DNA of 64,000 nucleotides from an uncultured Gammaproteobacteria bacterium (GTDB lineage: Bacteria > Patescibacteriota > Microgenomatia > JAMCZE01). Where the stretch lies: the NCBI GenBank assembly GCA_964641255.1, contig CAZXMM010000001.1:681795-745794 (forward strand). Reading direction: 5' to 3'. A model generated the notes under the pieces. It made no database searches and had not been told where the DNA came from. It worked only from the letters and a program-made list of their open reading frames with translations. A program made the position numbers and the translations under genes. Positions 9,432-52,180 of the stretch are shown here, piece by piece. Numbering within the stretch: position 1 is the stretch's first letter; the number at the start of each line of letters is the position of its first letter.

Positions 9432-11321
9432 ATGTCAAAACCCGAAGTTAAAGAAGTAAAAATCACCAAGACAGCCAGATATCAACCTTCAGAGCGTGAG
9501 CAGGAGCTTCTGACTAAATGGAAAGCTAGATTCAAACGTGCCAAGGAGTTTCGGGATCCGTATCAAGCCAAATGGCTACGGATGTACAGACTTTATCGAG
9601 CCTATCAACACAAACAAAACTACGCTTACAACACCCGTCTCATGCCTCCGATCGCTTTTGAAATAGTCAAAACTGTTGTATCCAGGCTGGCCACGGCAAA
9701 ACGCAAAACAAGAGTCATCCCAAGAGAAAAAGCAGATATTCAATCGACATCCCTCGGATCTTGGGCCGATTTAGTGAATTATGACTTTGACATCATCGAG
9801 TTAGCAAAGAAGCTGCCCAACTGGATTGAGTCATCAGTTTTGTACGGGAACGGGATAGTTAAGCTTGCTTGGAAAATAATTAACAGAAAACGGTCAAACG
9901 GCTCAATAAAAACTATTTACGATGACCCCACCATGATTCTCTGTGACTTGTGGGATTTTCTACCTGCTCCGGAAACTGAAGACCTCCAGGAAGGATGTCC
10001 CTGGCTTATTCACCGTATTGTTAAACCAAAAGAAAAGATTACTAAAGAAGAAGAAAAACGGGGTGATAACAAAATCTACAAGAATCTTGAGTTTTGTGAG
10101 CCTAAAGTAGTTGAGGACTGGAAGAAAGAGCGCTACGAGATTAACACCAAGAAAATGTCCCAAATTGATGGCGATATCAAAAAAGCTGAAACGGGCGAGC
10201 AAAAAGTGCTTCAGGTCAAAAATGATCAGGAAAAACAACTGGAACTCTGGGAGTGCTGGGACTACGAAGAGGATCAGCTGATAGTGATCGCCAATGGTGA
10301 AGTAGTTATTCGCGATGACGAGAATCCTTATCTTGATGTTAACAACGGCCACATTTTTGTGGATCTTCCTGATATGTCACTCCTTTGGGAATTCTGGGCA
10401 ACCGGCCACGTTGAACCCGTTGAAAGTACAATCATGGAAATTTCTGACCTACGGAACCAAAGAATGGATGATGTGGTGTTAATGCTCGACCCAGTGGTAA
10501 AAATCCGCAAGGATACCGGCATTACCAAAAATGACATCATTTTCTCTCCAGGGGCAGTTTGGGAACTACGAAAAATGGATGACGTGGTGATTGAACGACC
10601 GCCAGACATTAGCTTAATGGGCGTCAACGAAGACAAGTTGCTCCGTGATGAAATCTCAAGAACTCTTGCCCTAGGAGAATACTTGCAGGGATTACCACAA
10701 TCATCCGGTGAGCCACTTGGCAAAGTAGCAATGCTGTTAGGTCAGAGCAATCTAAGACTAAGCATGAATGCCCAAAACATTTCAAATGCTCTAACCGTTG
10801 TAGCAAACATTCTTATTCAGCTTAACCGTGAATTTATCGGAGAAGACAAACTCTATCGCATTGTTGGCAATAGTGTCGACTTTAAGGAGTTCAAGTCTGA
10901 GGATAAGAAAATCCAGGTAGACGCGATTGTTGAAGTTGAGCCGGTCATCCCACCGGATAAGCAGGCCAGACTTAACCAGATATTGCTTCTTTATGACAAA
11001 TTCATAGCTCAGGATAAACCTGATCCAAATAGTGTGGCTGATGTAAAACGTTGGTTAGTCCGCAAGCGTGCTCTACAGAAAATGATTCTGGAGGAACTCG
11101 ACCTCGACCAGTATGTCGACATTCTCCTTGGACCGGAAGTAGCTAAAATTGAGGAAGAAACCGAAGAAGTATTACCAAAAGGGGCGCCGGTAGCCCCTGT
11201 AGCGCCTTTTGAGAGGGATTTACCACCTCAGCCGACTAGTTCACCATCCAAATCAACAAACAACAAGATTCGGCAGTTAATAGGTAAAATTCCGCTCCTT
11301 GGCAAGGCATTGAGTTCTTAG
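9432..11321 (+). CDS. Phage portal (head-tail connector), T7-like
   Basis: 629 aa. N-terminal RDPYQAKW..YRLYRAY and LVNYDFDIIELAKKLPNWIESSVLYGNGIVKL resemble T7 gp8 regions (RAPYETRA..., NYIESNSYRVTLFEALKQLVVAGNVLL), recalled from memory. Confidence 0.55.
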   Translation: MSKPEVKEVKITKTARYQPSEREQELLTKWKARFKRAKEFRDPYQAKWLRMYRLYRAYQHKQNYAYNTRLMPPIAFEIVKTVVSRLATAKRKTRVIPREKADIQSTSLGSWADLVNYDFDIIELAKKLPNWIESSVLYGNGIVKLAWKIINRKRSNGSIKTIYDDPTMILCDLWDFLPAPETEDLQEGCPWLIHRIVKPKEKITKEEEKRGDNKIYKNLEFCEPKVVEDWKKERYEINTKKMSQIDGDIKKAETGEQKVLQVKNDQEKQLELWECWDYEEDQLIVIANGEVVIRDDENPYLDVNNGHIFVDLPDMSLLWEFWATGHVEPVESTIMEISDLRNQRMDDVVLMLDPVVKIRKDTGITKNDIIFSPGAVWELRKMDDVVIERPPDISLMGVNEDKLLRDEISRTLALGEYLQGLPQSSGEPLGKVAMLLGQSNLRLSMNAQNISNALTVVANILIQLNREFIGEDKLYRIVGNSVDFKEFKSEDKKIQVDAIVEVEPVIPPDKQARLNQILLLYDKFIAQDKPDPNSVADVKRWLVRKRALQKMILEELDLDQYVDILLGPEVAKIEEETEEVLPKGAPVAPVAPFERDLPPQPTSSPSKSTNNKIRQLIGKIPLLGKALSS

Positions 11322-11474
11322 TGGTAAATTTTTGCCTGAAGTCGTGTTACTTCTTTTGTATTTGTTTCCAGAGCCAAACACCCAAGAGTACTAAATCAAC
11401 CAAAACGATGATTGTAAAGAGACTTCCGAAAAGTCCGAATCCTCCCATCATACCTCCATATCGGCCAAAACCCA

Positions 11475-11699
11475 TCATAAATGGTCACCTCCTTTTATTA
11501 TTGCCTCCGTCTGTTTTGGAGGACATTTTGTATCTGCATAGGAACAAAAGACACAGCAAACACCTTCTTTGGGTTTCAACATGTCGCCGCAATTCTGACA
11601 TTTATAAAAATGCTGGCAGGCATCAGTTGGCATCTCGGCCTCCTGTGTCGTGTGGCAATTGGGACAAGTAAGATGTGCTTTTGTAACAACTTGATTCAT
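11475..11699 (-). CDS. GDCCVxC-domain small metal-binding protein
   Basis: 74 aa with CPNC, CQNCGD, GVCCVFC, a GDCCVxC-type cysteine pattern. Confidence 0.6.
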   Translation of the reverse strand: MNQVVTKAHLTCPNCHTTQEAEMPTDACQHFYKCQNCGDMLKPKEGVCCVFCSYADTKCPPKQTEAIIKGGDHL

Positions 11700-11711
11700 A
11701 AGCCAAGCAGA

Positions 11712-12176
11712 TCACTTCTGACTTTCCAAGTATATTTTCAAATTTATTCCCTCTTCCCGGATGTGCTTTCTGGCAGCAGCCGGTTCTACGAACAGGTTTG
11801 CAAGTCTATCAAGAATTCCGTATTTATCCCCATACTCGACATACGCAATCAGTCTCGATTTATTATCCGAAATTTTTTCTATCTGAAAATAGCCTTTTCC
11901 GGTTTTCAGTAGCGAGAAAGGGAAAGCCGGCTTATATTCTATATATTCGTTCGTCTTAATATCCGTAACTCTTGCAATCAGGTACAGGGGAAAGCCGCCG
12001 ATACGTTCCAGAAAATGAAATACACAACCCTTCTTTGATAATGTTCCTGAAATTGTTTTGCAGAAAACGTGGTCTTTGTGGTGCCATGTTTTGTAAAGCA
12101 GATCAATATGGGTTAAAAATCCGAAAACTGATTTGGCAGGAGCATTAATAAAAGTTTCTTCTTTTAGTGTAATCAT
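11712..12176 (-). CDS. SRPBCC (Bet v1/START-like) family protein
   Basis: 154 aa. Size and pattern fit a polyketide-cyclase/AHSA1-like fold. Weak call. Confidence 0.4.
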   Translation of the reverse strand: MITLKEETFINAPAKSVFGFLTHIDLLYKTWHHKDHVFCKTISGTLSKKGCVFHFLERIGGFPLYLIARVTDIKTNEYIEYKPAFPFSLLKTGKGYFQIEKISDNKSRLIAYVEYGDKYGILDRLANLFVEPAAARKHIREEGINLKIYLESQK

Positions 12177-12200
12177 ATTCTTATTTTCTCTTATCGGACA

Positions 12201-14420
12201 TTACTTTTGAATAGGTTCCGCGTTATTATCCGACGGTGCCTGTGGCTTGGGAATCTTTTTTAATGTTCTCGTATAAATCACCACTTTTGCATCCTTCATA
12301 AGTTTTGAGGAAAGCTGCTCGGAAAGCTGTGCGTGCTTCTCCTGAGTCAGACGTTCTTTAATAAATTCCTTCGAGTCTTCAAAGCTCAATTGTTCCGGCT
12401 CCGAACGGTCAAGGACTTCAACGATATAGATGTAGCCATTGGCCTCAAACGGCGTACCGATTTCTCCTTTGGGAATAGCCTGAACCTGCTCATGATATTG
12501 ATGTTTAACAATTTCTCCCATAAGATCCATTTCTTCCTCAACCCATTCTGTTACCTCGCCCCCCTTATCTTTGGTTTCTTCGTCTTCCGAATATTGCTTG
12601 GCAACAGAGGCAAAATCCTCTCCTTTTTTTAGTGGACCGGGAACGAGCTTTTTATATGCTTCGTTAGCTTTGTCGAAGGCTTTTTTATGCTCATCGTCGG
12701 TTGCGTTATCAGAGCCACCCGCACGGATGACAATCTGGCGGACTCTTGACTTAGCAGGTTTTATAAATTGTGATTTATTACGGTTGTAGTAATCCTCGAT
12801 TTCTTTATCTTCGATTTTAATTTTCTCATCGACTTCCTCCTGTTCAAGCATCTGAGCCAGGACTTTCAGGCGCATCTCATCTTTGCGCTCCTTTGTTTCA
12901 GTCTGGGATACCTGGCTTAAACTGTCTTCGTATAACAGCAGGCGCTCGATAATTTTCTCAACCAGTGCCTGCTTACCTTCAGTGCCGGCATATGAAGACA
13001 GAAACGAAAGCGGTAGTTCCTGATATTCTTCCCAGAATTCACCCAAAGTAAACCGTTTACCGTTGACGGTAAAGAGTGTCCTGTCGGCATTATCGGTATA
13101 GTATTTCTTTTCCGTCTCGATCAGGACTGCCGTTTGCACCTGTGAGCGGACTTCCTCAAAACTCTGCTGCCGTTCCGGCTGTTTGGAACTAAGTCTGGCA
13201 ATAACAAATGCGTCTTTGTCGGCAATAACATCGCTTATCTGCTCCGGATCCAGCCGGAAGATAGCTTCTTCATAACCAGGATCGTTTTCTCCTTTTGTCC
13301 TGGTTACTCCGGTCTGGGGAAGCGGAGAGCCGGTTATTTCCTGATACACCTGACCGAAGTCGCTTCCGGAGCGGATTTTGGATAAAGTCTGTTCGGCTTT
13401 TTCTTTAGCCTTCTTTTCATCAGTGCCTTTCGGAATGCGGATTTCGTAAACAACGGCTTGGGCTTTGACTAGATATTTATCTTTATTGGCATCATAGTAG
13501 TTACGCAGTTCCCAGTCGGCAGGGTCAGGAATAGCCAACACTGCCGGATCGCGGGTAATTGAGGCTCTATTTTTCAGGCCGGTAATGTAGTTCTGGACAA
13601 ACTGATCTTCCTTTTCGCTTTGCAGCTTCGTTTTTATTTCCTCACGTACGTCGGTCAGCGTTTTATCTCCGAAATCTTTTCTGTTGGCATCATAGTAGGC
13701 GCCGATATCACCCTCAGTTACTCCGAGTTGCCCTTTGTGCATCTGGGCATGAAGTTCATTCAGGTTTATTTCCTCAGTGATATGCTTCATCACATGGGAA
13801 AATTCTTTATCCTGGTCGGGTTTGCGGGTAGCCTGCCAGCGTTTGACGATTTCATCGGTGATCATTTCCTGGACGATCAGTGCATACCCTTGGGGAGACT
13901 TTAGCTGCTTTTGCGTTTCTTCGTCCTCAACAAGTGAAACCAGGTGTTTTTCAACATCTTCAATGGTGATTCTACCCCCGTCATATGCGGCAACGACGTC
14001 GGGAGCGGGCGGCCAGGGAGCAAAAATGTCTTCACGGAATCTGAAAACAAGGAAAGCGAGAACCACAATGACACCCAAAATAATTTTCTTCTTTTTAGAT
14101 AAGTGAATTTTGGGTAGAGGTAACCGTAATGGCTTACTTTCAGGCGGTTGCTCTCCGGCTTTTGTGGGTTCTATGGATTGTTCCGGATGAACTTCCTGAG
14201 GAGTAATTTCCTTCGGAATATCAACAACCTCCTTATCAAGTGTCTTTTTCCCGGATTGAATCCGCTCCGGTTTTTTTGGCAGAGGTTTCTGCTTCCGATC
14301 ACCACCGGAAAAACCCAGAGACTGCCGGATGTCAGTAAATACCTGACCCCAGCCCTCACCGGATTTGTCTTTAGCGGCTGCTTTCGGTTTGTGGTGGGAA
14401 GACATTGACTTTTGTTTCAT
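12201..14420 (-). CDS. Membrane-anchored periplasmic chaperone, PpiD/SurA-like (tentative)
   Basis: 739 aa, N-terminal TM helix (ILGVIVVLAFLVF), K/E-rich. Operon context with hflKC. Parvulin motif not clearly seen. Confidence 0.4.
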   Translation of the reverse strand: MKQKSMSSHHKPKAAAKDKSGEGWGQVFTDIRQSLGFSGGDRKQKPLPKKPERIQSGKKTLDKEVVDIPKEITPQEVHPEQSIEPTKAGEQPPESKPLRLPLPKIHLSKKKKIILGVIVVLAFLVFRFREDIFAPWPPAPDVVAAYDGGRITIEDVEKHLVSLVEDEETQKQLKSPQGYALIVQEMITDEIVKRWQATRKPDQDKEFSHVMKHITEEINLNELHAQMHKGQLGVTEGDIGAYYDANRKDFGDKTLTDVREEIKTKLQSEKEDQFVQNYITGLKNRASITRDPAVLAIPDPADWELRNYYDANKDKYLVKAQAVVYEIRIPKGTDEKKAKEKAEQTLSKIRSGSDFGQVYQEITGSPLPQTGVTRTKGENDPGYEEAIFRLDPEQISDVIADKDAFVIARLSSKQPERQQSFEEVRSQVQTAVLIETEKKYYTDNADRTLFTVNGKRFTLGEFWEEYQELPLSFLSSYAGTEGKQALVEKIIERLLLYEDSLSQVSQTETKERKDEMRLKVLAQMLEQEEVDEKIKIEDKEIEDYYNRNKSQFIKPAKSRVRQIVIRAGGSDNATDDEHKKAFDKANEAYKKLVPGPLKKGEDFASVAKQYSEDEETKDKGGEVTEWVEEEMDLMGEIVKHQYHEQVQAIPKGEIGTPFEANGYIYIVEVLDRSEPEQLSFEDSKEFIKERLTQEKHAQLSEQLSSKLMKDAKVVIYTRTLKKIPKPQAPSDNNAEPIQK

Positions 14421-29955: not shown

Positions 29956-30960
29956 TCAATAGGAAACTGAAGTGAATATCACGGGGCTATAGAGGCGGGA
30001 AGACTGCGGGGATAAATCTTTTGAAGAAGCGTTCTGCTGACACGCATTGGAACAACTACCTGAACTAAAACAGGCCATTACCGCATCCTGACCGGATTGA
30101 TGGTATTCGACAGCCTGAACCGGAGCCATAGCCAAACTGCCCAGGACCATTACGGATAACGCACTGATGATGACATTTTTAACTGAAAGGCGGGGTGTTA
30201 AAGAGGTTTTTTGAATGAGAGTGTTGATTCTGGTTTCCAGCGTGTGGGTATCGGCAAAACCTGGTGCAGTTACATAAGCGGGGTATATATCATGGCGCAG
30301 AAGTTTAACTAAAATAGATCTAAGATGATCTTTACCCTGCTCCATTGCCATGATTGCACTCTTATCTGCCTGTAATTCTCTATGAGTTTGGTAATGAGAA
30401 ATAAAATCAGTTAGTAAGGGGAAGAACGGAAAGAGAGATTCGGTAAAAACTGCAAAGAGCATCACCAAAGTATCATTGTTTTCCAGGTGATATTTTTCGT
30501 GCCGGAGCACCGCTTCTATCTCAGATGATGTGGCCAGTGAGATCATCTGTGTAGAGATATATATTTTAGGTTTAGAAATCCCGAAACAAAATGCACCCAT
30601 CCGTTTGTCTTTAATAACACAGACTTTATGTTGCAGATCGAGTTTATTAATTATCGGGAGAATGGCACGATTATCCGTTAGCTTTTGTTCCAGCTCTCTT
30701 CTTTGCTGAACTATCCGCCAGGCTGTCAGAAGAACTTTTATCACTATATATAAGGCCAGGGCAGCTAACCCCCACAGGGTAAATTGCTTCATATTTAACT
30801 GAATCGCTTGGGGTGAAACAGATTGAATAACCTGCCTGCAGTAATAAACCGTGTTATGGAGAAAAAAGGGGATGTATTTGGCGCAGGCATTGTATGAGAG
30901 CGTTGCGAGTACAAGAAAGATTCCGGCAAAGATCCATAAAAATTTATTTGTTTTTATCAT
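29956..30960 (-). CDS. BlaR1/MecR1-like M56 metalloprotease (sensor-transducer) lacking the C-terminal penicillin-binding domain
   Basis: 4 TM helices. HEKYH zinc motif. 334 aa with Cys-rich tail (CFSSGSCSNAC). Overlaps blaI-like by 17 nt. Confidence 0.7.
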   Translation of the reverse strand: MIKTNKFLWIFAGIFLVLATLSYNACAKYIPFFLHNTVYYCRQVIQSVSPQAIQLNMKQFTLWGLAALALYIVIKVLLTAWRIVQQRRELEQKLTDNRAILPIINKLDLQHKVCVIKDKRMGAFCFGISKPKIYISTQMISLATSSEIEAVLRHEKYHLENNDTLVMLFAVFTESLFPFFPLLTDFISHYQTHRELQADKSAIMAMEQGKDHLRSILVKLLRHDIYPAYVTAPGFADTHTLETRINTLIQKTSLTPRLSVKNVIISALSVMVLGSLAMAPVQAVEYHQSGQDAVMACFSSGSCSNACQQNASSKDLSPQSSRLYSPVIFTSVSY

Positions 30961-31324
30961 ATTCGTGTAAGAGCTTTAGGAAATACTCTTTCTTTTCCTT
31001 CGGTAAACGGTCAATAGACTGGGCAAATGAAGCAAGCGCCGCATCCCCGAACGTCCCGAAAAATCTGTCCAACAATGTTCTGGCCATTTTCCGGCTGAAT
31101 TCCTCTTTAGTCTGCTTTGGAACAAAAACAACGGTGAATGCAGAAGTATCTTTATTTACTAACCCCTTATCGTGCAACCGTTCTAAAATCGTGGCTATTG
31201 TCGTATAAGCAAGATTCTTTGTTTTGTTTGTCTCTTCCACCACTTCGCGGATGGTACATTTTCCCAATGCCCATACAACATCCATAACTTCCTGTTCGAG
31301 CTCGCTTAAGGTTTTAGTCTTCAT
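30944..31324 (-). CDS. BlaI/MecI/CopY-family winged-helix repressor
   Basis: LSELEQEVMDVVWALGKCTIREVVE...AYTTIATILERLHDKGLV. No C-terminal CxC metal motif, so not CopY-type. Confidence 0.8.
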   Translation of the reverse strand: MKTKTLSELEQEVMDVVWALGKCTIREVVEETNKTKNLAYTTIATILERLHDKGLVNKDTSAFTVVFVPKQTKEEFSRKMARTLLDRFFGTFGDAALASFAQSIDRLPKEKKEYFLKLLHEYDKNK

Positions 31325-31329
31325 AGCTA

Positions 31330-31342
31330 CTACAAATTGTAG
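31330..31342. promoter_or_regulatory. BlaI-family operator dyad CTACA-AAT-TGTAG immediately upstream of the blaI-like start
   Basis: Perfect palindrome 6 nt from the blaI ATG (31324). Same 15-mer as at 18082..18096. Confidence 0.5.
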
Positions 31343-31448
31343 ATAAATTGTTGATAAATTTCAATGCTTTGTAAATCACCACAAAGTTACAGAAACTTTA
31401 TTGAGAACTATTTTCCCCTTTACTAGACTGTAGCTATTAGGAAGTAAA

Positions 31449-31525
31449 GCCTAACGAAACAATCGGGGCTGTGACTTCTGGATATACGCATAATCGCGTG
31501 TGTTTAGAAGTTGCAGCCCTCTTTT
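31449..31525 (+). promoter_or_regulatory. Conserved phage leader element, copy 2
   Basis: GCCTAACGAAACAATCGGGGCT at 31449..31470 (20/22 identical to 9347..9368). CGGGGCTG pairs with CAGCCCT at 31514..31520, followed by CTTTT. AGAAGTTG block at 31506..31513 matches AGAAGTAG at 9388..9395. Lies 16 to 92 nt upstream of the first structural gene. Confidence 0.4.
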
Positions 31526-31540
31526 AGTTACTAAGAAGAA

Positions 31541-31939
31541 ATGAAAACACTTAATCAGAATATCCATCCGGCAACTCTCCTCCCCATTGGAGTAATTACT
31601 GAAACGACTCAAGGTTCAGCAGTTGATAGTTATCTCTCCGGCCGACCGGCTTATGACTCCGGTCTTATCGACGTCGCCATCGGGAACCTCGGCGATCAAA
31701 CCTCTACCAAAGTAAAGATTGAAGAATCAGATGCTTCCGATTTTTCTTCAGGAGTAACTTTGGCCAAAGGCGGAGAGGAAATCACTGTTGCGGCAGACAC
31801 CGGCTACAAGATGCAGATTGAACGGAAGAAAAGATATCTCCGGGCAGTTGTAACTATTACTGCGGGCTCCGCTCCATCTGCTGAAGCATATGTCGGAGCA
31901 TTACTGTGGGACGCGCAAAGACCGTTCCCAATTACTTAA
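31541..31939 (+). CDS. Hypothetical phage protein
   Basis: 132 aa, first ORF of the co-directional structural block. Confidence 0.4.
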   Translation: MKTLNQNIHPATLLPIGVITETTQGSAVDSYLSGRPAYDSGLIDVAIGNLGDQTSTKVKIEESDASDFSSGVTLAKGGEEITVAADTGYKMQIERKKRYLRAVVTITAGSAPSAEAYVGALLWDAQRPFPIT

Positions 31940-33450: not shown

Positions 33451-34620
33451 ATGCCAGCATCAGCAACAGGAATCAGAGGTTCAGGTAATCTAGGGGCAAC
33501 CCGAAAGTATGACGTCGCAGACGTTGTATCGCTATTGGATGTCAACCGATATCCATTGATGGCGATATTAACAAACGCTGGTAAAGACCCAGCAACCGGC
33601 GAGGGCGAAGCACTTAAAAAGAAAGAGTCTACTGACCCGGAATTTAAATGGTTTGAAGATGAGTTTGGAAAGCGACAGCTTACCGGCTCAAGCACTGTCG
33701 ATCCTGATGGCGGTAACTTAACTGTCACAGGGCAATCGCAGTATCTTCAAGTCGGCGACATCATCTTGGTGTCCTCACAGAAGTGGGTCTTTCAGGTAAC
33801 CGCTATCGTAGACGCAAACACAGTAACAGTTGGTCCCGAACTCGGCGGTGCAACGGGCTCGGCTGCGTCAGCAGTCGGAGACGTCTGGCTCATTGGTAAC
33901 GCCAATGAGGAAGGTGCAGGTTTGCGAGATATCAAATCGACCACCATTGCCGAAGTGTCCAACTACTGTCAGATTTTCAGAACTCCAGTCGGTATCACTG
34001 AAACTGCCCGAAATACTCAAGGATGGGTGAAAGAAAATGACTTTGATTACCAGAGGCGCAAAAAAGGTATTGAGCACTATGTTGATATCGAGCGCACATT
34101 TATCTTTGGTAAGAAAGGAATCATCACTTCCGGAACTCACCCCAAGAGGTTTACAAGCGGAATTCTAGGAAGGATTGCTACTTACGCAACTGCCAACGTT
34201 GACACCGAGTCTGAGTTTGACTCATGGCTTGAAAGTCTCTTTGCGCACGGCAACACAGAAAAGTATCTCTTCGCTTCAGCTTCGGTCGTTTCGATGATCA
34301 ATGGCTGGGCAAAAGGGAAACTCCAGGTAGTCAATCCAACTAAAGCCTACGGGTTAAGAATCGTTACTTACGACTCTCCACACGGCACTCTGCACATCAT
34401 CAAGCATCCACTATTAATTGGAACAACCTATGGTAACTACGCCATCGGTTTAGATATGGAAGCTTTGACATACCGCTATCTGACCAATCGTGACACCAAG
34501 CTTTTGACTAACCGTCAAAATCCAGGTGAAGACAGTCAGGTTGATGAGTATCTAACCGAGTGTGGATTACAGATGGAACAAGAGCAACGCCACGCCATCA
34601 TGAGTATCGGCTCGCTCTAA
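33451..34620 (+). CDS. Major capsid protein (putative)
   Basis: 389 aa, strong RBS AAGGGAGGTG, position after scaffold-like gene, followed by a hairpin cluster. Confidence 0.5.
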   Translation: MPASATGIRGSGNLGATRKYDVADVVSLLDVNRYPLMAILTNAGKDPATGEGEALKKKESTDPEFKWFEDEFGKRQLTGSSTVDPDGGNLTVTGQSQYLQVGDIILVSSQKWVFQVTAIVDANTVTVGPELGGATGSAASAVGDVWLIGNANEEGAGLRDIKSTTIAEVSNYCQIFRTPVGITETARNTQGWVKENDFDYQRRKKGIEHYVDIERTFIFGKKGIITSGTHPKRFTSGILGRIATYATANVDTESEFDSWLESLFAHGNTEKYLFASASVVSMINGWAKGKLQVVNPTKAYGLRIVTYDSPHGTLHIIKHPLLIGTTYGNYAIGLDMEALTYRYLTNRDTKLLTNRQNPGEDSQVDEYLTECGLQMEQEQRHAIMSIGSL

Positions 34621-36296: not shown

Positions 36297-36617
36297 GTGA
36301 AAACTATGCAAGAAAGCGATGTAGCACTACTAGAACAAATCATAAAAGCCATAGTCGCAAAGCCAGAGAAAGTTGTTATCGAAAGAAAAGTAGACGAAAT
36401 GGGAGTCCTGTTATCAGTTCGACTAGATGACAAAGACGCGGGTGCATTAATCGGCAGAGGCGGAGAAACCATAGCAGCAATTCGAAGAATTATGAAGCTC
36501 GTAGGGGTCAAAGCCAATGCCCGAATAAACATCAAGTTAGATGTTCCGCGCAGAAGCAAAAACGACTATGAAAAACCAAGTATTGAAGATCAAAGTAACA
36601 ATCCAAGAGAACTCTGA
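36297..36617 (+). CDS. KH-domain RNA-binding protein (UPF0109/YlqC-like)
   Basis: 106 aa. GXXG loop in DAGALIGRGGETIAAIRRI. RBS AAGGAGGTG. Confidence 0.6.
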   Translation: MKTMQESDVALLEQIIKAIVAKPEKVVIERKVDEMGVLLSVRLDDKDAGALIGRGGETIAAIRRIMKLVGVKANARINIKLDVPRRSKNDYEKPSIEDQSNNPREL

Positions 36618-48849: not shown

Positions 48850-48870
48850 GGTTACTTCTTACCCTTTTTA
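48848..48870. terminator. Bidirectional intrinsic terminator candidate between convergent genes
   Basis: AGGGT-TACTTCTT-ACCCT followed by TTTTT. Overlaps the last codons of the minus-strand AbrB-like gene. Confidence 0.3.
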
Positions 48871-49127
48871 TCAGAATCTTCTTCAGATTTGTTATTGAAC
48901 ACAAGATTATTTAAGTCATCTGTAAAACCTTTAAAGGAGTTGGCATTCAAGACATGGAAATATCCGGATTCCGGATTACCGGTAAAAATCAGTGTGTCGC
49001 CGGGTTGAATGTTCTGAGCTTTACGCAATTTGGCAGGTATAACGATTTGACCGCGCGAGCTTACAGGAGCGGTCCCGAACACTGTCATTTTTGATTGTGG
49101 CTTCTTGCCTTTATTTTTCATAGTCAT
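48852..49127 (-). CDS. AbrB/SpoVT (swapped-hairpin) family DNA-binding protein
   Basis: SSRGQIVIPAKLRKAQNIQPGDTL matches the SpoVT_AbrB domain pattern. Confidence 0.55.
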   Translation of the reverse strand: MTMKNKGKKPQSKMTVFGTAPVSSRGQIVIPAKLRKAQNIQPGDTLIFTGNPESGYFHVLNANSFKGFTDDLNNLVFNNKSEEDSDKKGKK

Positions 49128-50916: not shown

Positions 50917-51627
50917 ATGAATTCGAAAAAATTAGCTTCTAAACCCTTGCCCAAACACGTAGCTATTATCATGGACGGTAATCGGCGCTGGGCTCGGGGC
51001 AAAGGACTGCCAGAGCTACTGGGACACAAGTACGGTGCCGATGCCCTAGAAAAGGTCATCGAGGCCGCCGCCCAGATGGGGCTTAAAACTTTGACTGTCT
51101 TTGCTCTCTCCACCGAAAACATCGTCGAACGCACCCCGGAAGAAATAGCGGCCCTCTTTAAGCTCCTGGATTCGCTTTTTTACGAGCGGTCTAAAGAGCT
51201 CTCGGAAAAAGGCGTCAGAGTCCAAGTTTTAGGAGAAAGAGTGGGACTACCCAGTAATATCACCGAGATCATCGACCGCATCCATGCTATTACTGTCAAG
51301 AAAGAAGTGATCCATGTTAATGTCTGTCTAAATTACGGCGGCAGAGCGGAAATCTTAAGAGCGGTAAAAAATCTTCTCCAGCAGGGGATAAGGGCGGATA
51401 AAGTCACGGAGGAAGTGTTCTCAAGGAATCTTTTTACAGCCGGCCAGGCGGACCCAGATCTGATGATTAGAACCGGGGGACGAAACAGGCTGTCCAACTA
51501 TCTGCTCTGGCAAACCTCTTACGCCGAGGTGTTTTTTACTCCTACCCTCTGGCCTGATTTTGACGGCCGGGGACTCAAGGAGGCTATTACCTGGTTTCAA
51601 AATCAAACCAGAAACTTCGGGAAATAA
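50917..51627 (+). CDS. uppS: Undecaprenyl-diphosphate synthase (cis-isoprenyl transferase)
   Basis: HVAIIMDGNRRWAR, FALSTENIVERTPEE, LMIRTGGRNRLSNYLLWQTSYAE. Confidence 0.9.
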   Translation: MNSKKLASKPLPKHVAIIMDGNRRWARGKGLPELLGHKYGADALEKVIEAAAQMGLKTLTVFALSTENIVERTPEEIAALFKLLDSLFYERSKELSEKGVRVQVLGERVGLPSNITEIIDRIHAITVKKEVIHVNVCLNYGGRAEILRAVKNLLQQGIRADKVTEEVFSRNLFTAGQADPDLMIRTGGRNRLSNYLLWQTSYAEVFFTPTLWPDFDGRGLKEAITWFQNQTRNFGK

Positions 51628-51677: not shown

Positions 51678-51751
51678 GCTCCCGTAGCTCAACTGGATAG
51701 AGCAAGTCGGTTCTAACGATTAGGTTCCGTGTTCGAGTCACGGCGGGAGCA
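51678..51751 (+). tRNA. tRNA-Arg (anticodon TCT)
   Basis: Hand-folded: acceptor GCTCCCG/CGGGAGC, D-arm GCTC..GAGC, anticodon stem AGTCG/CGATT (one G-U), loop GTTCTAA, T-arm CCGTG-TTCGAGT-CACGG. Position 32 is G, which is unusual. No encoded CCA. Confidence 0.65.
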
Positions 51752-51756
51752 CCTCA

Positions 51757-52032: not shown

Positions 52033-52105
52033 GGTGGCTGTAGCTCAGTGGTAGAGCGTTAGATTGTGGATCTAAAAGTCGCGGGTTCGATCCCCGTCAG
52101 CCACC
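52033..52105 (+). tRNA. tRNA-His (anticodon GTG) with encoded G-1
   Basis: G-1 pairs with C73. Acceptor GTGGCTG/CAGCCAC, D-arm GCTC-AGTGGTA-GAGC, anticodon stem TTAGA/TCTAA, loop TTGTGGA, T-loop TTCGATC. Confidence 0.75.
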
Positions 52106-52180
52106 CTATAGTATTTTATGGGCACTGGGGGCTAGGTTCATCAATTGTACATCCAACCCGCCCAATGAATTTTTGTCCTT

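Follow-up and report, generated by a model that had tools for sequence, protein, structure and literature searches.

A putative promoter-proximal RNA attenuator repeated before the virion operons of Patescibacteria prophages

A prophage of the Patescibacteria (CPR) carries two copies of a short RNA leader, each placed directly before the first gene of a block of virion genes. On balance, this leader is probably a promoter-proximal attenuator of the virion operons, which would be read through when a factor holds a small hairpin, P1, and prevents the formation of a longer, terminator-like hairpin, P2. The leaders were analysed in a 64-kb stretch of DNA, called the window hereafter. Copy 1 is of type A and precedes the portal gene; copy 2 is of type B and precedes the head/tail module. 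A preliminary description of the sequence had recognized the second copy as a repeated leader at the boundary between cargo and structural genes, and had linked it to a BlaI operator nearby; the repeat, the leader and the boundary all stand, whereas the functional connection with BlaI is unsupported. Absent from that description were three points: the box shared by the two copies forms a hairpin overlapping with a terminator, a promoter-like site is present upstream, and the element is a family widespread in Patescibacteria prophages. The repeat, both helices and their overlap, the strand specificity, the fixed distance between promoter-like site and box and the distribution among relatives are directly supported by the analyses below, which refer to the following features.

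9036..9221, minus strand: gene for a 61-aa HTH_17/MerR-type protein (Pfam HTH_17, E = 1e-9, residues 4-54)
9300..9328, plus strand: type-A promoter-like site of copy 1, TAGAGT-17-TACCCT, a putative site assigned by alignment alone
9347..9368, plus strand: box of copy 1, predicted to form P1 (nascent-RNA fold and pair counts)
9362..9419, plus strand: P2 and U-run of copy 1 (hairpin 9362-9411, U-run TTTTTGTT at 9412-9419)
9432..11321, plus strand: portal gene (Pfam SU10_portal, 25.8 bits against a cutoff of 30; PHROG head-tail adaptor/portal families)
31368..31400, plus strand: left end of the conserved phage block, including the palindrome AAAGTTACAGAAACTTT (31383-31399), immediately adjacent to the -35 hexamer
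31401..31429, plus strand: type-B promoter-like site of copy 2, TTGAGA-17-TAGACT (consensus scan; position conserved in relatives)
31449..31470, plus strand: box of copy 2, predicted to form P1, the putative antiterminator (nascent-RNA fold and pair counts)
31449-31452, plus strand: 5' strand of P1 in copy 2, GCCU
31465..31525, plus strand: P2 and U-run of copy 2 (stem 31465-31489 / 31496-31520, loop 31490-31495, U-run 31520-31525)
31541..31939, plus strand: first gene of the head/tail module, 132 aa, phrog_5707
33451-34620, plus strand: SU10-type major capsid gene
36297..36617, plus strand: gene for a 106-aa KH-domain (KhpA-like) RNA-binding protein (Pfam KH_KhpA-B, E = 1.6e-15; GxxG loop)

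Both copies begin with the same 22-nt box, GCCTAACGAANNNATCGGGGCT, located on the plus strand at 9347-9368 and 31449-31470. A search of the 64-kb window allowing up to three mismatches returned only these two matches, against a chance expectation of 0.02, and none of 100 shuffled controls contained two or more. With filters off, a covariance model constructed from relatives gave exactly two sites in the window, with scores of 90.9 and 85.0 bits, and its best unrelated match there reached 12 bits. The same model, again with filters off, returned no third copy of the leader in the window or in the related loci. One weak additional leader match was noted in locus L080. The box search and the covariance model thus bear out the proposal that 31449..31525 repeats the element at 9347, and the interval is accurate, with box, hairpin and T-run all falling inside it. 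The term leader is also apt: copy 2 ends 15 nt ahead of the start codon at 31541, and copy 1 ends 12 nt ahead of the portal start codon at 9432.

The box is predicted to fold into P1 through the pairs G1-C21, C2-G20, C3-G19, U4·G18, C7-G17, G8-C16 and A9-U15, leaving a bulge (A5A6) and a 5-nt loop (positions 10-14) unpaired. P1 is the predicted fold of the RNA that precedes the 3' arm of P2, at -7.6 kcal/mol in copy 2 and -8.0 kcal/mol in copy 1. Its 3' strand (box positions 15-21) doubles as the base of P2, the overlap covering 31465-31469 in copy 2, and P1 and P2 are therefore mutually exclusive. In predicted folds and pair counts, the leader has the RAT-like architecture of an antiterminator/terminator attenuator, in which the antiterminator shares bases with the 5' arm of the terminator.

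Comparison of relatives supports the pairing. Among 21 distinct short-form variants, part of them collected with patterns that fix several box positions and inflate the apparent conservation, 100% of the cells in P1 are paired, compared with at most 64% in control registers slid by 1-3 columns. Double-sided changes are seen in three of the seven pairs (1:21, G-C to A-U; 2:20, C-G to U-A; 9:15, A-U to G-C), to be read with the reservations that P1 is short and weak (-8 kcal/mol), that most of its pairs are invariant and that positions 16-21 are also constrained by P2. The loop takes the form ANNNA, with three free positions. In L074, G18 is replaced by A, which makes a better pair with U4 in P1, and P2 shows the corresponding change of C to U; the base at position 18 therefore serves both helices.

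Relatives with 57-62% portal identity carry a long form of the box, in which CCUGACGG...CGGGGCU is kept and an extra helix is inserted inside the P1 loop. Five of the six pairs of this inserted helix are compensatory, and the sequences of its internal loops are conserved (UAAACGAGA). Across the forms, the insert inside the box ranges from 4 to ~27 nt; such variation in length is typical of RNA structure and would be a poor fit to a two-part DNA site. Four distant relatives (L085, L086, L088 and L094) have unrelated small hairpins with UACG or CACG (YACG) loops, again overlapping the 5' arm of a terminator.

Other readings of the box were considered and rejected. The MFE fold of copy 1 pairs the box with the U-tail, an arrangement that neither type-B copies nor distant relatives conserve. 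K-turn and boxB-like motifs were dismissed because the sequence does not fit their consensus. The leader is not likely to encode a leader peptide, having no plus-strand ORF of at least 20 aa. A GTG-initiated frame of 18 codons does lie inside P2, with no Shine-Dalgarno sequence seen before it. A conserved 22-bp box ending in GGGG could also be taken for a phage RNA-polymerase promoter, a reading at odds with a covarying RNA helix located downstream of a sigma-70-like site. It was rejected also because the 1437-aa ORF of the prophage, a polyvalent LPD38 protein, matches no PDB chain, RNA polymerases included.

P2 follows directly from P1 and has the features of a strong terminator hairpin. In copy 2 it comprises 25 pairs (-41.6 kcal/mol, z = -7.0), with a GGG/CCC base followed by UCUUUUAGUU as a U-rich run; the T-run TCTTTT occupies 31520-31525, and the stem is followed by TCTTTTAGTT. 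In copy 1, the 88-nt segment folds at -31.5 kcal/mol (z = -5.7), and the hairpin at 9362-9411 is followed by UUUUUGUU. A simple terminator scan flagged copy 2 and missed copy 1 because of two internal mismatches in its stem. As judged from sequence and fold, both copies possess the G+C-based stem and U-rich run of an intrinsic (Rho-independent) terminator. The U-run columns are conserved across 45 aligned elements, and the same alignment gives P2 as 21 pairs, 8 of them with compensatory changes and many of them G·U. The double-sided changes mostly distinguish type A from type B, for example G-C/U-A/A-U at one position.

The abundance of G·U pairs gives the element a strand. At four positions the P2 pair is mostly G·U, which corresponds to A·C on the complementary strand, and because such pairs are many, only the plus strand pairs well: copy 2 folds at -41.6 kcal/mol on the plus strand versus -24.8 kcal/mol on the minus strand, and the covariance-model scores are 85-91 versus 23-34 bits. 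These comparisons indicate that the element acts as RNA, made from the plus strand. The P2 stem is further conserved in sequence beyond what pairing alone would demand, for example at GACUUCUG. Stems of 21-25 pairs with conserved sequence are unusual for a plain terminator, and hint at RNase III processing or protein binding as another or an additional role.

Promoter-like sites are found at a fixed place upstream of the box. For copy 2, the type-B site would set the start of transcription near 31436. The type-A site in the window has poor hexamers by the E. coli rules used for scoring, from which the uncharacterised promoters of CPR may differ, and was missed by the consensus scan. Its aligned counterparts read TTGCAT-18-TAGAAT in L005, L021 and L028, and TTGAAA-17-TAGCAT in L052. 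The type-B site in L005 (TTGACA-18-TACAAT) is near consensus, and the group with 59-62% portal identity has TTGACA-17-TAAAAT in the equivalent place. The distance from the -10 to the box is a constant 18-20 nt in every lineage examined. The box would then begin at about +13 (and extend to +34), and a terminated RNA would measure ~85-90 nt. Neither copy leaves room for a further promoter between the U-run and the ATG. The sequence between -35 and -10 is not conserved across lineages, and A-rich, -10-like strings at +3 to +10 are indistinguishable from background. The dyad at the -35 is maintained in relatives through swapped bases, as AAAGTT..AACTTT or AAACT..AGTTT.

The element is common among prophages of the Patescibacteria. 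An exact-pattern scan located the box in 14 stretches of 8 IMG/VR viral contigs and in 30 further stretches of genome contigs, essentially all of them Patescibacteria MAGs, for a total of 44 further loci besides the window, usually with the box as a pair. Every one of these matches proved to be a true element with hairpin and T-run. The lineages represented are Woese-, Davies-, Gottesman-, Shapiro-, Collier-, Roizman- and Nomurabacteria and WWE3. Several of the TPA records that carry the element under the label Pseudomonadales or Gammaproteobacteria are probably mislabelled. Some contigs reach 0.3-1.1 Mb, and the prophages bearing the element are therefore integrated. Most genomes have two copies, with type A before the portal gene and type B before a head module that does not open with the same gene in every lineage; L005, a compact relative, has its type-B element directly after the portal gene.

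A retrieval based on the portal protein only, which is unbiased as to the RNA, returned relatives with 42-95% identity and found the motif in 73 of 86 distinct upstream regions. The regions without it belong to distant portals (at most 50% identity), where TerL abuts the portal gene or a different leader is present, and to a few special cases: the box is lost in L083, the copy in L156 is truncated, and L135, whose box has A in place of G20 and so escaped the search pattern, is really a 74th carrier. Within one genome, the type-A and type-B copies vary together. L128 and L130 have G5 in both copies, and the loops of the two types are identical within L005, within L020/L028 and within L021/L036. 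This concerted variation suggests a trans-acting factor shared by the two leaders; gene conversion could give the same pattern.

Searches of databases and literature found no described counterpart. Neither leader region had a DNA match in 50,697 deposited phage genomes. At gathering thresholds, Rfam 15 returned only a tRNA for the whole window, and permissive searches with both copies and the four distant relatives (E up to 5-10) gave only generic long-hairpin (miRNA-type) matches far below threshold. A literature search on CPR phage regulation or antitermination found nothing relevant.

The genes around the two leaders form separate blocks. The head/tail module runs on the plus strand from 31541 to ~48849 and includes an SU10 adaptor, a tail fibre, the polyvalent LPD38 protein, an amidase and an M23 peptidase. 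Between the copies lie 20 kb of host-type genes on the minus strand, encoding a PPIase, three SPFH proteins, a cation-efflux protein, a cysteine desulfurase, a P-type ATPase, an ABC transporter, three DsbA-like proteins, one DsbD-like protein and a BlaR1-like/BlaI pair. The junction between cargo and phage is at about 31367-31375, where blastn alignments with more than 20 related loci begin and run into the head module; leftward of this point nothing is shared at the DNA level, as expected from the earlier placement of copy 2 at the cargo/structural boundary.

The palindrome CTACAAATTGTAG at 31330-31342 is a TACA..TGTA dyad located 6 nt from the blaI start codon, and it overlaps the -10 of the minus-strand promoter-like site of blaI (31364..31336); for these reasons, it is plausibly the operator of blaI itself. 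It lies 107 nt upstream of the box, in agreement with the spacing of about 110 nt given in the preliminary description. A functional link between BlaI and the leader is unsupported, with the palindrome 58 nt upstream of the leader -35 hexamer, at about -100 from the predicted start, and with other cargo beside the leader in most relatives. There, the neighbouring genes are a reverse transcriptase with XRE, an ArsR/ArsC/P-type ATPase set or the portal gene itself. The association of BlaI/BlaR1 with the leader does recur in L029 and L023, where a diverged pair (34-45% identity) is found with CCTACAAGTGTAGG in the equivalent position, and this recurrence is unexplained.

Among known systems, the closest match to the probable working of the leader is the RAT of the BglG/SacY/LicT family. 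RAT is an imperfect leader hairpin with conserved bulges that is bound by a protein; on its 3' side it shares sequence with the 5' arm of a terminator, and its stabilization blocks that terminator. The leader likewise has a small bulged hairpin overlapping a terminator. However, it does not resemble RAT in sequence, it precedes phage virion operons rather than a sugar operon, and its terminator stem is much longer (21-25 pairs). The nearby CAT-PRD protein that marks this family was not found among ~55 window ORFs scanned with Pfam and PHROG, which also contained no ANTAR or Q protein; no N-like protein was seen in the same general scans.

Phage lambda (nutL/nutR, recognized by N) and HK022 (putL/putR) also have two promoter-proximal RNA elements with a small hairpin, in two operons, and the leaders resemble them in being two such elements per phage genome. 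The nut and put elements belong to early operons and act processively on terminators further downstream without being part of a terminator, whereas the leader is part of its terminator and stands before virion operons. Lambda nut sites combine a linear boxA with a boxB hairpin that has a GNRA-like pentaloop, and they are served by an arginine-rich N protein; the P1 loop, a variable ANNNA, is not of the boxB type. ANTAR targets consist of two tandem hairpins, the second overlapping a terminator, with hexaloops that have A1 and G4. The distant relatives approach these targets and the guanidine-II (mini-ykkC) RNA in having two tandem small hairpins with identical ACG-containing loops, one of which overlaps a terminator. 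Their loops are UACG/CACG tetraloops, unlike AxxGxx hexaloops or ACGR tetraloops, and have no Rfam match; the window copies each have a single bulged hairpin.

Two further systems involve small phage proteins. Com of phage Mu binds a short hairpin, with CC(N)2-3GAG in its loop as the target, and remodels an inhibitory structure in the mom mRNA, thereby acting on translation (PMC6483171). The leader is similar in placing a small hairpin next to an inhibitory structure, and in L085, L086, L088 and L094 a gene for a 56-63-aa zinc-ribbon protein lies between TerL and the leader, directly upstream of the latter. The CC(N)2-3GAG motif is absent from P1, and the zinc-ribbon proteins were rejected as Com homologues, with Pfam Zn_ribbon_Com at only E = 0.06-0.25 (cutoff 22.9 bits) and no informative phage match. 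No homologue of the zinc-ribbon protein was found in the window or in close relatives. In the Q (lambda PR'-qut-tR') and AlpA (P. aeruginosa PalpB-tB) systems, the protein binds an element that lies between the -35 and -10 hexamers, and a -10-like sequence located at about -1 to +5 serves as a pause element; AlpA has an N-terminal segment, which forms a ring in the RNA exit channel, and a C-terminal HTH (PMC9371919). These systems share with the leader late or lysis genes behind a promoter-proximal terminator, the need for read-through and a small regulator gene nearby. They differ in relying on DNA recognition, a sigma-dependent pause (about +1 to +5) and processive blocking of hairpins, as opposed to an RNA helix that overlaps one terminator. 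The 61-aa HTH protein does not have the layout of an N-terminal segment followed by a C-terminal HTH.

The leader is an undescribed RNA motif, most likely with the working principle of known antiterminator/terminator attenuators. From its layout we infer a start site, a termination event, a direction of regulation and a kind of factor, as follows. Transcription would start near 31436 from the sigma-70-like promoter at 31401-31429, and from about +13 the RNA would fold into P1, the small conserved bulged hairpin. P2 and the U-run would then act as an intrinsic terminator 15-20 nt before the start codon, the G+C-rich base of P2 being the 3' strand of P1. By default, the far more stable P2 would displace P1, and transcription would end after ~85-90 nt. 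A factor bound to P1 would block the bottom 5-7 pairs of P2; the remainder of P2 would be too distant from the U-run, and RNA polymerase would continue into the portal gene from copy 1 or into the head/tail genes from copy 2. Most likely, this factor would be a phage-encoded protein that recognizes the invariant bulge and stem, and the two leaders would constitute a two-operon regulon through which particle production is switched on jointly.

Two genes in the window deserve attention as possible regulators. The gene for the KH-domain protein is present in all related loci whose sequence extends ~4.8 kb beyond the type-B leader, and also in contigs of the long-form and distant leader groups. 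The KH protein is a speculative candidate for the trans-acting factor of P1. The idea that it, or some other small phage protein, is a hairpin-clamping antiterminator with the paired leaders as its RNA targets is a bold one and rather unlikely. The KH gene sits inside the head operon that its product would control, a point against this role; if the KH protein is the factor, positive feedback and an all-or-none late switch would follow. The gene for the 61-aa HTH protein is divergent from the copy-1 leader and has its own promoter-like site (9278..9250, minus strand). It is conserved in place in ~24 loci with 82-88% identity and is not adjacent to the leader in L005, L006, L041 and L052. This protein would more plausibly act on DNA, as a regulator of the weak type-A promoter, than on P1. 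In the distant relatives alone, the zinc-ribbon protein encoded between TerL and the leader is a further putative candidate.

Several alternatives to an attenuator were weighed. The leader may be fixed and unregulated, with P2 stabilising the 5' end, undergoing RNase III processing or terminating leakily to set the level of expression or insulate the operon from the cargo, and with P1 incidental or a folding aid. Such a leader would agree with a P2 of 21-25 pairs, a length that suffices for RNase III and exceeds that of typical terminators, with the conservation of the stem sequence itself and with the position of the leaders beside a hot spot of cargo insertion; the type-B element after the portal gene of L005 would also end portal transcription. 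We grant this explanation only a small chance, as it leaves unexplained the invariant 22-nt box, the compensatory changes at positions 1, 2 and 9, outside P2, the conserved inserted helix and the concerted change of types A and B. A slighter chance attaches to processive antitermination of the Q/AlpA type, in which a DNA-binding protein, such as the 61-aa HTH protein, would load on a paused polymerase and the box would be a DNA or pause signal. The order of promoter, terminator and late genes is that of lambda PR'-tR' and P. aeruginosa PalpB-tB (PMC9371919), the box keeps a fixed distance from the -10, and a small HTH gene is conserved beside copy 1. Against this, the conserved element is transcribed (+13 to +34), forms a helix supported by covariation and overlaps the terminator, and the insert within the box varies from 4 to ~27 nt. 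The HTH protein itself is also a poor match, since its HTH at residues 4-54 of 61 leaves no N-terminal segment like the ring-former of AlpA, and its gene is away from the leader in the four loci named above.

The terminated transcript of ~85-90 nt could itself be the product, a small RNA acting as antisense, protein sponge or decoy, with the downstream genes expressed by leak-through. Classic bacterial sRNAs have a layout of this kind, with a conserved 5' part ahead of a strong terminator hairpin and U-tail, and very high sequence conservation across host lineages and two paralogous copies per genome are in keeping with this reading. It is nevertheless very improbable, given that the element is always co-oriented with, and immediately upstream of, a virion operon that has no other promoter, that no complementary target occurs in the window at up to three mismatches and that the conserved 5' part is paired rather than free. 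Least probable of the four is a cis-acting RNA that senses a ligand or binds the polymerase, P1 (45 nt in the long form) being a riboswitch aptamer or a put-like RNA. It would account for highly conserved internal loops and bulges flanked by covarying helices and for two promoter-proximal copies per genome, as with putL/putR of HK022. No Rfam family was matched, however, even at permissive thresholds; the ~7 unpaired conserved bases of the short form are very few for a ligand pocket; virion genes are not an obvious target of metabolite control; and put elements are not terminators.

Read as an attenuator, the leader looks like an on/off switch for the production of virus particles. To our knowledge, almost nothing is known about gene regulation in CPR/Patescibacteria and their phages, because neither is grown routinely. 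The motif is short, sharply defined and found in multiple lineages, and it shows where the portal and head operons begin. It provides a testable model of when particles are made, a sequence signature by which such prophages can be found and oriented in metagenomes, and a defined RNA bait for identification of the regulator. The leaders also bracket a hot spot for unrelated host-type cargo of 2-22 kb, which bears on how prophages carry genes for metal resistance, redox functions and defence. If a KH protein were indeed to clamp the hairpin, the paired leaders would represent an undescribed type of phage late-gene control and an undescribed role for KH proteins, common to a large group of Patescibacteria phages.

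The interval that separates the portal gene from the type-B leader, the leader copy ahead of the head/tail module, is an insertion hot spot for cargo; it spans 11322-31367 in the window, and the regions for comparison in two related loci are 496-2520 (L005) and 5879-14095 (L006). The window has 20 kb in this interval, against about 6 kb in L006 and about 0 kb in L005. The cargo is unrelated in content from one relative to another:

11322-31367, window: metal, redox and envelope genes
Other relatives: reverse transcriptase with XRE and a small ABM-like protein, or ArsR/ArsC/P-type ATPase

A BlaI/BlaR1-like pair immediately adjoins the type-B leader in three lineages:

29956-31342, window
61-1450, related locus L029 (reverse complement)
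1-260, related locus L023

These proteins share only 34-45% identity among the three lineages, and each lineage has its own TACA..TGTA palindrome shortly ahead of the blaI start, with a spacer of 3 nt in the window and 2 nt in L029 and L023. Another palindrome, AAAGTTACAGAAACTTT (window 31383-31399), borders the -35 of the type-B promoter-like site. Its counterpart in relatives is AAACTGACAGAAAGTTT, in which the swapped bases preserve the dyad. The palindrome may be the site for a dimeric DNA-binding regulator.

The type-A leader, the copy ahead of the portal gene, lies back-to-back with the following gene in a conserved arrangement:

9036-9221, minus strand: HTH_17/MerR-type gene, 61 aa

Most leaders adjoining this gene have a non-consensus -35 (CTAGnnT), and several leaders without it carry TTGCAT or TTGAAA at that position. 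The leaders of three distant relatives (L085, L088 and L094) sit about 150 nt 5′ of portal genes and carry a tandem pair of small hairpins, both capped by the same UACG tetraloop, before or within the terminator. Directly 5′ of these leaders is a zinc-ribbon gene (56-63 aa, CxxC...CxxC), the 3′ end of which overlaps the leader promoter. A gene for a KH-domain (KhpA-like) RNA-binding protein is located in the middle of the head/tail module (36297-36617) and is kept across these phages; a phage head/tail module is an unusual location for such a gene.

The prophage-like block is flanked by the following features, those on the right being succeeded by host genes:

1386-9017, minus strand: three large genes directly to the left, for proteins of 1113 aa (helicase), 571 aa (NERD + helicase) and 852 aa (DrmE C-terminal domain)
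48852-49127, minus strand: MazE-like antitoxin gene, next to the right end
50917-51627: undecaprenyl-diphosphate synthase gene
51678-51753: tRNA-Arg
52034-52106: tRNA-His

The left-hand trio looks like a DISARM-type defence cluster, and the two tRNA genes may be attachment-site markers. No terminase large subunit (TerL) was recognised in the whole 64-kb window. The TerL of relatives lies a few kb 5′ of the type-A leader or directly abuts it (L021, 1740-3296; L028, 6271-7788; L085-L094). The window prophage may be rearranged, reach past the window or be defective.

The long-form relative L080, which has an extra helix in the loop of the box hairpin, contains a weak second match to the leader covariance model (1913-1980, 21 bits), 360 nt 5′ of its main leader. 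Elsewhere, one leader is partial and another has altered surroundings. In L156 (1240-1500), the type-A leader is without its left part, and only the 3′ arm of the terminator hairpin and the U-run remain, behind unrelated sequence. In L019 (270-420), the leader is whole, but unrelated sequence replaces the usual promoter region 5′ of the box. Recombination has therefore taken place inside or immediately beside the leader.
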